NCBI GenBank assembly: GCA_937899865.1
Contig: CALBRH010000023.1
Coordinates: forward strand, 1 to 45,278
DNA length: 45,278 nt
Direction: 5' to 3'
Source: an uncultured euryarchaeote
GTDB lineage: Archaea; Thermoplasmatota; Poseidoniia; Poseidoniales; Poseidoniaceae
Shown: piece after piece, positions 27,326 to 38,036 of the stretch
Position numbering within the stretch: position 1 is the first letter of the stretch
Layout: each line of letters begins with the position of its first letter
The notes under the pieces: generated by a model
Database searches by the model: none
What the model saw: only the letters and a program-made list of their open reading frames with translations
What the model was told of the DNA's origin: nothing
Position numbers and translations under genes: made by a program

Positions 27326-29095
27326 TCAAGCATTCATGTCATATGCAAGTAATCTCATGTATGTGCCGTAAATAGTTCCTGATACATGCAGTGATTCTTC
27401 ATTGAAACGATCCATTGTATCTAAGTAGGTATGATATTCCCATGCACCTCCACCATAGCATGAAACTGCGCGACCCACTTTATTTCCTAACTCATAAATA
27501 AACGGACAGTAATCTGAATTACAAGGCATCTCATTTGATTCGCCTTTTGCTCCATCAAGTAAACTGAATCTAATGTCGTATTTGTTAGCAATTTCATTAC
27601 GCTCTTCGGTGTATAGATTAGCGATTCTTTTGATATGTCCATAGTCATCTTCATTATTGGTAAACAGGGTCAATGAATTACCTCGATTTTGGAAATCAGC
27701 ATCTACGTGATTCATATCAAAATTGAGATATAATCTCAAATTGTTTCGCAAACTGTTTTGCATTTCAGCAACATATGCTCTACTGCCCCATAATCCTTCT
27801 TCTTCGCCACCCCAGGTACAGAATTGAATTGTTCGTTCTGGCATACCTGTATTGTTGACTATTTCAGCCAGTTGCCTAGCCATTTCCAGTACTGTTGTTA
27901 CTCCTGAAGTGTCATCAACTGCACCTTCTCCTTGGTATACAGTGTCGTGATGTGCTCCTGCAATAATGACCTCTGAACTTCTACCCTCAATGATTCCGCA
28001 GGGAACGTAGATAGTTCGCTCTTCATCATTGGTCACATCAATAATAAGTTCGATCGATGCAGGTTCTGTAGCATTGATTACTAAGGCTTCAAAAATATCG
28101 CCAGCATCTCTTGACATCGCGATAAATGGAATGTCAGTTGGTATAGTTCCTCCATTTGCCGAGACCAATGCATCATAATTTGTACCCTTGAAAATTGGTA
28201 CGCAGTCATTACCTTCTATCTGTCCACAATTGATTATTTTGTTAACACTGATTATTCCGGCCAAATCATTTTGAGCAGCATAACTATACATCTCAGTATT
28301 ACTAACTCTTGATTCATCCATTCTTACATATCCTAAGGTTCCAGTAGCTGATTGCCAAAGTGCTTCATCTGTACCATTGCCCAAATCAGTTACAGTAATA
28401 TCTTCGTCAAACATATATTGAGATTGACCTGATAATCCTTGAATTACATAATCCACTCTATGTTGGAAAATGGTAACCTGTGAGCCACCAACTTGCCCAA
28501 CAGGGCCGTCACACGGTGAAAAACCTAGACTTCCTTGGACACATAGCCTGAAACTCGGTTCTGAATTTACATGATGCATTGGGACTTCATAACTATACGA
28601 CTGAGCCTCATAACCCATTTCTGACAACCGGTCAAGGATATACAGTGAGGTATTTGCTTCTTCTACTGTACCGCTCATTCTCCCTTCCCAGTCAGGATGG
28701 CCTAATGCTACTAATTCCTCAGCATATATTTTGGTTTGGCTTTGGTCAAAATCAATTAACTGATAATCATAATCATCGCCGAAACCAAGCCAAGCCGGCT
28801 TTAGTATAAGAACAGATGAAATCATTAGAAGAGAAAGACCAATTGCGATTACTGCTCCTAAATTCAAAGGCCCAACAACTTGTGTTTTCATTTTAGCAAA
28901 TATTGCCTCATAACGAGATTCATCTTCAATCAAATCTGCTTCAATTGAGATCATTAACGGTTCTTTAGAATGAGCCATTAAACGCTCAATTAGTTCTGAT
29001 TTTTTTCCTGAAGTGGGTAAACCAAAATTCTCTAATTCCTGCTTAAGTTCAGCGACTAACATATTGTTGTAGTCTGATTGAGACATGAGGAACAC
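27326..29095 (-). CDS. SAP domain - TM - M28 metallopeptidase (with PA-like insert)
   Basis: SAP consensus YNNMLVAELKQELENFGLPTSGKKSELIERL; TM LGAVIAIGLSLLMISSVLIL; M28 zinc and catalytic motifs GAHHD, GAVDDTSG, GEEEGLWGS, NFDM, YHT. Confidence 0.9.
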   Translation of the reverse strand: MFLMSQSDYNNMLVAELKQELENFGLPTSGKKSELIERLMAHSKEPLMISIEADLIEDESRYEAIFAKMKTQVVGPLNLGAVIAIGLSLLMISSVLILKPAWLGFGDDYDYQLIDFDQSQTKIYAEELVALGHPDWEGRMSGTVEEANTSLYILDRLSEMGYEAQSYSYEVPMHHVNSEPSFRLCVQGSLGFSPCDGPVGQVGGSQVTIFQHRVDYVIQGLSGQSQYMFDEDITVTDLGNGTDEALWQSATGTLGYVRMDESRVSNTEMYSYAAQNDLAGIISVNKIINCGQIEGNDCVPIFKGTNYDALVSANGGTIPTDIPFIAMSRDAGDIFEALVINATEPASIELIIDVTNDEERTIYVPCGIIEGRSSEVIIAGAHHDTVYQGEGAVDDTSGVTTVLEMARQLAEIVNNTGMPERTIQFCTWGGEEEGLWGSRAYVAEMQNSLRNNLRLYLNFDMNHVDADFQNRGNSLTLFTNNEDDYGHIKRIANLYTEERNEIANKYDIRFSLLDGAKGESNEMPCNSDYCPFIYELGNKVGRAVSCYGGGAWEYHTYLDTMDRFNEESLHVSGTIYGTYMRLLAYDMNA

Positions 29096-31641: not shown

Positions 31642-32937
31642 TCAAAAGTCAAATTCTATTGATTTCACATCGGTTCTTCCTGCTTTGTAAGCCTCAATTG
31701 CCGCTTTAGCAATTGCTTTAGGGTCATTAATTACTTGTTTGTCAATTTTGTCTCCATTGAATAAAGCATCTCCAACCAATACGGAATCCATCAGTGAAAG
31801 GTTCTTCTCACCAGGAGTCTCGCTTTGTTTGACGATTCTCTCCATGTCTACAGAAAGTGCTTGTATTGTTTCTAATTCTAGAGCCTTCTTTTCTAACTCT
31901 ATTTCTAAGTTAGAAACTTTTTCACGAGTCTCGTTTAATTGAACTCTTAGCATCTCAGATTCTATTCTTGTCGCACGCATTTCATTGGCTAATTCCTTTA
32001 GAACGTCTCTTGCAGAAGTGGGCTTATTACTGTCATTTCTTGGAGTTGAAACCTCTTGACTAGTCATTGTTTGTGGAATTGCTATATGTTCAGTTTCACC
32101 AGGGTATGTTGCGGACAAATAACTCACTGAATAATGCCCTGAAATGTTGAATCCAAGCGCCATTACAGCAAGCAATAAAGCTTCATCATTATGCCTAACA
32201 CTCATGCTAAAGTTAGAATCAATTTGGTAGAAAAAATCAAAGAAACTCATCATTGTTATGATTGAAATTAATGCAGAAAAGAAGTAGATGACAAATATTC
32301 TTCGACTATCTTTCCCGCTAGGTTTTGATGCAGGGACAGGATTTGGCATGGTAATCCTGCCTTCTATTACCCCTCTAGGATCATTAGCTAATTGTCTAAT
32401 TATTGGCCGTAATTTTTCCTCTACTGCATGAAGACTTTGCAAGTGTTGTTTTCTTCTTTTATTTGCTAATCTAAAACCAGACATAATGACTGTCCCTCCT
32501 AATAGGTAGTATAGCCAAAACCAAGGACCGTTTGGAGAGTTGCCATGATTTAGTTGATTGCCGATGTCAAATCCTATGCCCACCTCTGAATTCATTAGAA
32601 AACCATCAATCTGCTTGGCTAAATCTTCTGAAGTAAATTCTTCAAATGTACATCTATACTTATTCGTGTGTTTTTGCTGATTGCATTTCTCGTTTTCATA
32701 TGCAGCGATATTTTCTGAATAGTCAATTAGTGTATTTACTGCTACGAACATAATGGTTAGAATAATACATTTGGCAAGCAAGACTCCTACTCCACTAGGT
32801 GGTTTGTTAAAACGTTGATTTTGATTGATTGTTCTTGTTGTTCGCTGTCTTTTTGGTCGAAATACGTAAATCATTAATAGTAGTATAACAAATATGACAA
32901 TTTTGTCTAATTCTTGAATATGTATTTTCCCAGCCAT
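31642..32937 (-). CDS. Hypothetical multi-TM protein with C-terminal coiled coil
   Basis: 431 aa ORF with about 5 hydrophobic helices, a long heptad region (ARDVLKELANEM...ERIVKQ) and tail DSVLVGD...NDPKAIAKAAIEAYK. Confidence 0.75.
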   Translation of the reverse strand: MAGKIHIQELDKIVIFVILLLMIYVFRPKRQRTTRTINQNQRFNKPPSGVGVLLAKCIILTIMFVAVNTLIDYSENIAAYENEKCNQQKHTNKYRCTFEEFTSEDLAKQIDGFLMNSEVGIGFDIGNQLNHGNSPNGPWFWLYYLLGGTVIMSGFRLANKRRKQHLQSLHAVEEKLRPIIRQLANDPRGVIEGRITMPNPVPASKPSGKDSRRIFVIYFFSALISIITMMSFFDFFYQIDSNFSMSVRHNDEALLLAVMALGFNISGHYSVSYLSATYPGETEHIAIPQTMTSQEVSTPRNDSNKPTSARDVLKELANEMRATRIESEMLRVQLNETREKVSNLEIELEKKALELETIQALSVDMERIVKQSETPGEKNLSLMDSVLVGDALFNGDKIDKQVINDPKAIAKAAIEAYKAGRTDVKSIEFDF

Positions 32938-37208: not shown

Positions 37209-37985
37209 TTATACTTGAGATTGCTTACCACATTGTGGGCATGAAATTTTACCAGAGTAGCCATTAGGAACTAAAAGAGAATGACCACAGTGAACACATT
37301 CAATCTGCTTTTTTCCACTACTGCGATCTCTATTCAATATTCTCTCTATAGCAGGCGGCCAGCCTTCTTTCAACTCCTCGTCGGTAAGTAGTAGTGGTAT
37401 AGCCGCAACTCCAATACCAAGTAATGTGCACATCATCGAAAACGGTATCATCATACCTCCGTCGGCGATTGAAACAGAAACAGGATTCAAGTCTTCACCA
37501 GAGAATATTACACTAAGAGTTCCAGAAAGTATGAACGTTGCTATTGTGGTATAAATCCCATTGCGGTATTCTTGACTCAATAGTATACCGCTGTAGATGA
37601 ATAAAGCAGCGACTAAAAATGCAACTGGGGCTAATAGCCAGCCCAGATTACCATCACCGAATGCAGCAAAACCTAGTGCCCAAAACATTCTAAATACACC
37701 ATACATTATGATTACGGTTCCAACGGTAGAAGTAGTCCCTGTATTGCGATTAATTACTATTCCTTGAGATGTCATTCTGCCATAAACAACTTGAGGGGCT
37801 ACTGGCATTTGCCCTTGCATATTTGCTACTGGAGTGGAAAATGTTGCAGGTTGGTTTGTTCCTTCCATTGATTCATCATATTCCATTAAACGGATTACAA
37901 CTTCGTCTTTTTTCCCAGAGACTTTTAATCCTCTATCTTTACATAATTTTTTCAAATCAAGTAGTGTCATTTGGTCGTAAGACAT
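37209..37985 (-). CDS. SAP domain - 4TM - Zn ribbon membrane protein
   Basis: YDQMTLLDLKKLCKDRGLKVSGKKDEVVIRL (SAP), four hydrophobic helices, C-terminal CVHC-x12-CPQC. Confidence 0.82.
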   Translation of the reverse strand: MSYDQMTLLDLKKLCKDRGLKVSGKKDEVVIRLMEYDESMEGTNQPATFSTPVANMQGQMPVAPQVVYGRMTSQGIVINRNTGTTSTVGTVIIMYGVFRMFWALGFAAFGDGNLGWLLAPVAFLVAALFIYSGILLSQEYRNGIYTTIATFILSGTLSVIFSGEDLNPVSVSIADGGMMIPFSMMCTLLGIGVAAIPLLLTDEELKEGWPPAIERILNRDRSSGKKQIECVHCGHSLLVPNGYSGKISCPQCGKQSQV

Positions 37986-38036
37986 GACTTTACCATATTT
38001 GAACTACATTTATACTTATGGCCGATATTAACGTAA

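Follow-up and report, generated by a model that had tools for sequence, protein, structure and literature searches.

A conserved and undescribed family of SAP-domain membrane proteins in Poseidoniaceae, possible tethers between membrane and nucleic acid

Introduction

The window analysed here, by which we mean the whole stretch of 45,278 nucleotides from an uncultured archaeon of the Poseidoniaceae, contains on its minus strand an open reading frame (ORF; 37209-37985, 258 amino acids) whose product joins a SAP domain, a linker, four transmembrane (TM) helices, a short helix with a GWPP motif and a Cys4 zinc ribbon. This SAP-4TM-ribbon protein, hereinafter type A, belongs to a conserved and undescribed family, in which known modules are combined in an architecture that is itself undescribed. 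We propose, with a probability of roughly 0.45, that type A acts as an accessory tether of nucleic acid, likely DNA, to the membrane. This reading draws on SAP being the most constrained region of the protein, on the predicted cytoplasmic position of both soluble ends, on the lack of a recognizable enzymatic domain and on an architecture that can be permuted.

SAP is regarded as mainly a chromatin or nuclear-matrix module of eukaryotes, and to our knowledge no isolate of the order Poseidoniales is available. Our literature searches on prokaryotic SAP, HeH and LEM returned eukaryotic and viral work only, and no paper was found in which the SAP domain and Marine Group II appear together. The database labels of the type A family are generic, being either ‘SAP domain-containing protein’ or ‘hypothetical protein’, and the view of the preliminary description of this DNA, that the family had gone undescribed, is therefore upheld. 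One member carries the JGI name ‘RNA polymerase subunit RPC12/RpoP’, which reflects the ribbon only and is misleading.

The type A gene and its product

The type A ORF is a real, constrained gene, a chance ORF being excluded by homologues that form 92 clusters at 90% identity and by a dN/dS of 0.08-0.14, a rough figure with dS above 1 in the pairs in which it could be estimated. The identity of the homologues goes from 97% down to 33% and nearly all of them are 245-275 amino acids long, with about 15-20 full-length representatives in a library clustered at 50% identity. A TATA-like hexamer (38009-38014, minus strand) is located 29 nt upstream of the ATG, within the 51-nt gap that follows the gene of an E3 subunit, and, as read from the sequence, it suggests a putative promoter of the gene's own and a near-leaderless mRNA.

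The overall order of SAP, flexible linker, four TM helices and C-terminal Cys4, as first described, was recovered by Pfam, by hydropathy and by an AlphaFold2 (AF2) model built on 28 homologues (mean pLDDT 68.6, moderate confidence). SAP is the most conserved and most constrained region of the protein, with a mean pairwise identity of 77% as compared to 42-48% in the TM helices, 45% in the ribbon and 23% in the linker. The latter (residues 43-80; 37746-37859, minus strand) is disordered, rich in Q, P and T, variable in length and modelled with pLDDT below 50. Searches with Pfam, ESM Atlas, Foldseek and VIA-align revealed no catalytic or transport domain in the protein.

The SAP domain

The SAP domain of type A (residues 3-38; 37872-37979, minus strand) is a true member of PF02037, whose model it matches with 34.8 bits (E 1.2e-8; gathering score 23.9), and a six-frame search of the genome for the same model independently gave a match at 37872-37979 with 39.1 bits. 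The domain had previously been placed at 37884-37979, which is correct as to its presence and too short as to its extent, that range covering residues 3-34 of the match. In the AF2 model its helices span residues 8-17 and 26-41, and the helix-extended loop-helix fold is present together with the conserved glycine and basic residues. Invariant positions include T7, L11, K12, C15, K16, R18, G24, K26, an IRLME stretch, D37 and E38, and the invariant basic residues across type A are K12, K16, R18, K26 and R32.

Among solved structures, the family profile best fits the SAP domain of yeast Tho1 (E 6e-8), on which (PDB 4UZW) the type A SAP model superposes with an rmsd of 1.0 Å over 40 columns at 42% identity. 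The likeness to the Tho1/SARNP SAP (PDB 1H1J, 4UZW) thus lies in a genuine SAP fold with conserved basic residues; the whole proteins differ, since Tho1, a soluble factor of nuclear mRNPs, has an RNA-binding domain at its C-terminus, whereas type A is archaeal and polytopic and carries a zinc ribbon. In NMR titrations the SAP domain of Tho1 bound dsDNA and did not bind dsRNA (PMC4909252); DNA binding has therefore been demonstrated for Tho1, while for type A it is predicted by analogy.

The membrane core and its orientation

The four-TM core (residues 83-204; 37374-37739, minus strand) consists in the AF2 model of helices at residues 83-109, 113-137, 141-161 and 179-204, which match the four hydrophobic segments of the hydropathy profile. 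Invariant residues of the core across type A include Y95, R99 (inside TM1), G133, G143, S154, G155, S158 and P197, and a Y-(R/K)-N-G motif is conserved in its cytoplasmic loop. The core has no Pfam match and no usable match in ESM Atlas. Foldseek against the PDB returned nothing at E ≤ 0.001, the best matches being MS4A tetraspans at E 0.09-0.4. A wide VIA-align search with the core gave a flat ranking of generic four-helix bundles, the top Z, 10.1, being under the level that VIA-align itself flags as uninformative for helical bundles; MS4A/tetraspan proteins (CD20, Fc epsilon RI beta) occurred amid these bundles at Z 8.3.

The distribution of charges among the 28 aligned members is uneven: loops 1 and 3 hold on average 0.0 K/R, with 0.8 and 3.0 D/E, respectively, while about one basic residue is retained in loop 2 and each terminus has 8-9 K/R. 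The external loops are tiny, of 4 and about 13-17 residues. Applied to these charges, the positive-inside rule predicts an N-in and C-in topology, in which SAP and ribbon would both be cytoplasmic. The prediction agrees with a Cys4 zinc site, which fits the reducing cytoplasm, with the position of a ribbon of the same kind after the stop-transfer of a CARDB protein (see below), and with the order of modules in the permuted counterpart, type B. The earlier proposal that both putative binding ends lie on the same side of the membrane is thereby borne out, the side being the cytoplasmic one by charge across the 28 homologues, by the Cys4 ribbon and by the type B order; a SAP domain facing outside is not what the sequences indicate.

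A free-standing 4TM paralog had also been reported, and it is confirmed at 1135-1704 of the window (plus strand; 189 amino acids, with neither SAP nor ribbon) by an HMM of the 4TM core (E 2.3e-9 among the 17,163 ORFs of the genome) and by BLASTP (E 2e-6; 22% identity over 153 columns). Similar matches were found in other genomes. The free 4TM family counts 340 clusters, which apart from one PF07690 flag are devoid of Pfam domains and most of which are unnamed; the few named ones are ‘hypothetical’ and come from Poseidonia or Thermoplasmatota. In view of this family and of the invariant arginine within the membrane, the 4TM core could also be functional in itself.

The GWPP motif and the zinc ribbon

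Immediately after the membrane, a juxtamembrane GWPP motif and a short helix (residues 208-217; 37335-37364, minus strand) are conserved, G208 being invariant and P210 kept in at least 90% of the members, with the AF2 helix at 211-217. The C-terminal zinc ribbon (residues 227-258; 37212-37307, minus strand) has the form CxxC, 15 residues, CPxC. Its cysteines C230, C233, C249 and C252 are each kept in at least 90% of the 28 homologues, a VPxxYSG motif is conserved between the two pairs, and AF2 models four beta strands at 225-257 as the ribbon unit. In the preliminary description the ribbon was written as CVHC-x12-CPQC: the Cys4 is present and conserved as stated there, and the spacer between the pairs is of 15 residues and not of 12.

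Pfam zinc-ribbon models match the type A ribbon below their cut-offs (9.7 bits against 30.3 for the MJ0042 type), and a weak, sub-threshold likeness to the Brz and TFIIB ribbons is found in Pfam at E 0.16-0.27. Sister ribbons elsewhere in the genome reach 27.6 and 25.5 bits against Zn_ribbon_4/5, also under the cut-offs. Ribbons of the MJ0042 type (Zn_ribbon_4, Zn_ribbon_5) are common beside TM regions in prokaryotic membrane proteins, and type A resembles them in having a CxxC...CPxC ribbon beside TM segments; it differs in that its ribbon scores far under the family cut-off.

The same kind of ribbon occurs on other membrane proteins of the genome to which the window belongs (G000), where it stands at the head of a 3-TM protein and, in a protein of 133 amino acids, lies ahead of the tail anchor. 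A surface protein of 836 amino acids in this genome (C54:39682-42189), with a CARDB domain and many N-glycosylation sequons, ends in two such ribbons on the cytoplasmic side, both copies lying after the last TM segment and a K/R-rich stop-transfer. Proteins of about 740-950 amino acids with a ribbon of the type A kind were matched in many of the Poseidoniales genomes searched.

A permuted counterpart, type B

A second protein, type B, of 260-297 amino acids, is composed of SAP, linker, ribbon and then a membrane region of about three TM segments that includes a Cys-rich external loop (loci L038-L041 in genomes G003, G016, G028 and G036, and P0174; alignment A2). It has in common with type A the three kinds of modules, a similar size, the lineage and the ribbon signature, the ribbon being the same according to the ribbon HMM (E about 1e-12). 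The two differ in the order of the modules, which in type B brings both soluble ones before the first TM segment, and in the TM region, which in type B is not recognized by the 4TM HMM. The SAP subtype of type B is no closer to the SAP of type A than those of ribosomal proteins are; the sharing of a SAP subtype is not decisive as evidence of direct common descent of A and B, their 32-46% identity being similar to that with the ribosomal SAPs.

Type B is present in at least 16 of 201 genomes and, among the matches listed, full-length type A is found in none of these. Within the genus of G000 the matches listed give 22 genomes with type A only, eight with type B only, four with neither (83-92% complete) and none with both. 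Over E3, NrdA and NrdB, G003 and G016, both of which have type B, share 96% identity, with the nearest type A genome at 91%, and type B is probably one subclade within the genus, so that the mutual exclusion of A and B is in part a matter of phylogeny and rests on few independent events. The occurrence of the same types of modules in permuted order and in complementary genomes suggests that the selected unit is the combination of SAP, ribbon and membrane anchor.

SAP domains across Poseidoniales

The 2.0-Mb genome G000 encodes eight SAP domains above the PF02037 cut-off, carried by the ribosomal proteins eS1/S3Ae and eL32, an FKBP, Pus10, a SAP-TM-M28 ectopeptidase, a 722-amino acid SAP-TM-ectodomain protein, a polytopic protein with EF-hands and type A. 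In eS1/S3Ae (C54:32283-33347, L001) SAP is C-terminal, and in eL32 (C39:26643-27317, L002) N-terminal, on a strongly acidic linker in both; SAP-eL32 is also found in MGIIb genomes (L035, L036, L043). The domain is inserted within the C-terminal domain of the pseudouridine synthase Pus10 (C13:65392-67107, L006), stands at the C-terminus of the FKBP-type isomerase (C65:83514-84404, L004), and closes a polytopic protein with about 11 hydrophobic segments and two EF-hands (C13:9253-11433, L009). SAP is thus a general-purpose module in this lineage and is not specific to membrane proteins.

The fusion of SAP, one TM segment (residues 79-97) and an M28 peptidase, to which attention had been drawn earlier, is indeed encoded in the window (27326-29095, minus strand; PF02037 46.7 bits, PF04389 101.6 bits). 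Matches to it occur in 87 of 93 Poseidoniales genomes, and most of the alignments begin at query residues 2-10, that is with SAP included; fusions of SAP to a membrane anchor are thus a conserved trait rather than a sporadic one. In two families of Poseidoniales the number of SAP copies per genome is 3-9, all genomes (20/20 and 11/11) having a match, while elsewhere in the phylum one sister family of the class has five and the other lineages 0-3. This order-wide expansion of SAP in Poseidoniales is undescribed.

Distribution and genomic position

Among 200 genomes sampled from the order, with 12-13 candidates at most scored per genome, so that ‘not found’ refers to the matches listed and is not proof of absence, full-length type A was found in one family only (f1). 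The gene was found in at least 22 of 34 genomes of its own genus (G000 counted), in at least five of 32 of the MGIIa genus g2, at least nine of 10 of g3, about 10 of 11 of g4 and the single genome of g8; among the same matches it was not found in 12 of the 34 own-genus genomes, in most of g2, or in the families f2 and f3, the latter being MGIIb. A scan of species-representative genomes gave 122 relatives, and the best 80 of these 122 all bear the labels Poseidoniaceae, Poseidoniales or older equivalents, with Ca. Poseidonia alphae and the bins MGIIa-L1 and MGIIa-K1 among them. Contig CAXQWT010000096.1, which encodes type A, is part of a MAG that carries the name of the bacterium Salipiger bermudensis, where it is probably mis-binned. 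Among the matches listed, type A is therefore found only in Poseidoniaceae (MGIIa), and patchily there. A full-length homologue in another genome (G006:C5:3498-4253) contains three in-frame TGA codons, which could point to recoding, to a sequencing artefact or to a pseudogene. In viral contigs the matches were limited to SAP, with no full-length type A among them, so that a viral origin, or a role as an auxiliary viral gene, is unsupported.

In the window, the type A gene begins 51 nt after the E3 gene of a LipA-E1alpha-E1beta-E2-E3 2-oxoacid dehydrogenase (OADH) operon and abuts the stop codon of the convergent nrdA. Among the contexts compared, this position is shared only by G000 and G182, whose type A copy is 48% identical as against 84-92% for the neighbouring genes. 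In G003, G054 and G016, E3 and nrdA converge directly, with a gap of about 90-300 bp and no type A gene at the junction. Five other genomes have type A at the 3' end of a cytochrome b/HdrD-like cluster, and its contexts in a further four are unique. That cluster (L026:1710-7568, with equivalents L031-L034) is composed of three ORFs without Pfam domains, a cytochrome b and an HdrD-like protein of 942 amino acids with a CCG domain and 4Fe-4S domains; it is conserved and may be a respiratory module. A further ORF of the window, of 431 amino acids and without a Pfam domain (31642-32937, minus strand), lies between dUTPase and LplB and is 41% identical to its counterpart in G182, although the neighbours are well conserved.

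The location of type A varies between genomes of one genus, which rules out gene neighbourhood as a clue to function and, together with the patchy distribution, makes the OADH and ribonucleotide reductase (RNR) neighbours incidental: in its behaviour the gene resembles a single-gene unit that can relocate. Its patchiness, its fast evolution and its changing position mark its function as accessory and dispensable. An essential role such as chromosome segregation is unlikely on the same grounds of patchy distribution, fast evolution and mobility; segregation, one of the roles that the preliminary description had offered, is improbable as a core role for a protein that, among the matches listed, was not found in MGIIb, in most of g2 and in 12 of 34 own-genus genomes. 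The suggestion that type A, SAP-TM-M28 and the free 4TM paralog form one system also falls, because the three genes are unlinked and the location of type A varies.

Possible functions of type A

In the mechanism that we propose, the four TM helices would anchor type A in the membrane as an adaptor, and SAP, on its flexible linker of about 40 residues, would face the cytoplasm together with the C-terminal Cys4 ribbon. SAP, possibly aided by the ribbon, would bind nucleic acid, most likely the dsDNA of the AT-rich nucleoid, and the type A protein would thereby keep the DNA at the cytoplasmic surface of the membrane. The known preference of SAP domains for A/T-rich DNA is suited by a genome that is AT-rich (about 38-40% GC). 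Nucleic-acid binding as such, the choice of DNA over RNA, and the outcome, be it nucleoid positioning or a coupling of transcription, translation and membrane insertion, are what we infer.

Since SAP is also carried by eS1, eL32, Pus10 and FKBP, which have to do with translation, its ligand might instead be a shared protein, the ribosome or RNA. A type A protein that brings mRNA or ribosomes engaged in translation to the membrane, for instance to allow co-translational insertion, is a rather doubtful alternative, in favour of which speak the four SAP proteins of the eight in G000 that act in translation (counting the FKBP as a chaperone), the recurrence of SAP-eL32 in MGIIb and the function of some eukaryotic SAP proteins in RNA metabolism. 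However, the closest solved SAP, that of Tho1, bound dsDNA and not dsRNA (PMC4909252), and since ribosomal proteins belong to the ribosome anyway, their SAP more plausibly links it to something else. We consider about equally improbable that the 4TM core is the functional part, as a channel, a transporter subunit or a scaffold, with SAP and ribbon as regulatory or protein-interaction appendages. Such a core would account for the free-standing family of 340 clusters, for the invariance of R99 in TM1 and for the conservation of the Y-(R/K)-N-G loop, S154, G155 and S158, and ribbons of this kind are general cytoplasmic tails of unrelated membrane proteins in G000; zinc ribbons can also mediate protein contacts in other systems. 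Yet the TM helices are less conserved than SAP, type B retains SAP and ribbon while the 4TM HMM gives no match in its TM region, which speaks for the soluble modules as the unit under selection, and the core matched generic four-helix bundles (top Z 10.1) and no known channel or transporter fold.

Type A could also be a one-component regulator sequestered at the membrane, with SAP and ribbon as the DNA-binding factor and the 4TM core as the sensor of a signal. The layout does recall that of membrane-tethered regulators, which join DNA-binding modules to a TM sensor, and the sub-threshold Brz/TFIIB likeness of the ribbon would fit; nonetheless, external loops of the size found here leave little room for sensing, no conserved target operon or neighbourhood was found, and neither a protease site nor a partner is evident. 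We know of no SAP domains acting as sequence-specific transcription factors in Archaea, and overall this possibility is very remote. The accessory tether between membrane and nucleic acid, likely DNA, is thus the reading that we retain. A wider proposal, for which the odds are low, is that SAP in Poseidoniales serves as a docking tag of general use, directed at nucleic acid or the nucleoid, of which types A and B would be the dedicated membrane anchors; the tag would then be present on both ribosomal subunits (eS1, eL32), on a chaperone, on a tRNA-modifying enzyme and on several membrane proteins.

Relation to known tethers and significance

The proteins that type A most recalls in design are the eukaryotic LEM/HeH proteins (LAP2, emerin, MAN1, Heh1/Src1 and Heh2), which likewise combine a helix-extension-helix module, a flexible linker and a TM anchor and expose the binding end on the DNA-facing side of the membrane, a side that for type A is predicted. 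In a Pfam search of type A with E up to 10, only SAP and SAP_new25 were matched, and none of the LEM, HeH and MSC models. The eukaryotic proteins have one or two TM segments and, in the MAN1/Heh type, an MSC/winged-helix domain, whereas type A has four TM helices and a Cys4 ribbon instead. Given the disagreement in TM number, in the MSC domain and in the models that define the motif, the link to LEM/HeH proteins that had been drawn reduces to analogy, possibly a convergence, and homology beyond a SAP-like superfold is unsupported. Bacterial tethers between DNA and membrane, such as Noc of Bacillus and RacA-DivIVA, achieve the outcome proposed here for type A by different means, with ParB-like or HTH domains and an amphipathic helix or a partner, acting at specific sites and not as integral polytopic proteins.

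An abundant and uncultured order of marine archaea carries 3-9 SAP domains per genome, some of them on the predicted cytoplasmic face of membrane proteins and others on ribosomal proteins. This order-wide expansion would still need an explanation if type A bound no nucleic acid. If the docking-tag proposal were true, it would mean a prokaryotic, SAP-based spatial organization of DNA, ribosomes and membrane, a functional analogue of the tethering of chromatin to the nuclear envelope that evolved in an archaeon without a nucleus. Should type A itself bind DNA, it would be a simple archaeal tether between membrane and nucleoid and an entry point to the organization of chromosome, ribosomes and envelope in small planktonic cells, and the design of a helix-extension-helix module with a linker and a membrane anchor would have arisen outside eukaryotes as well.
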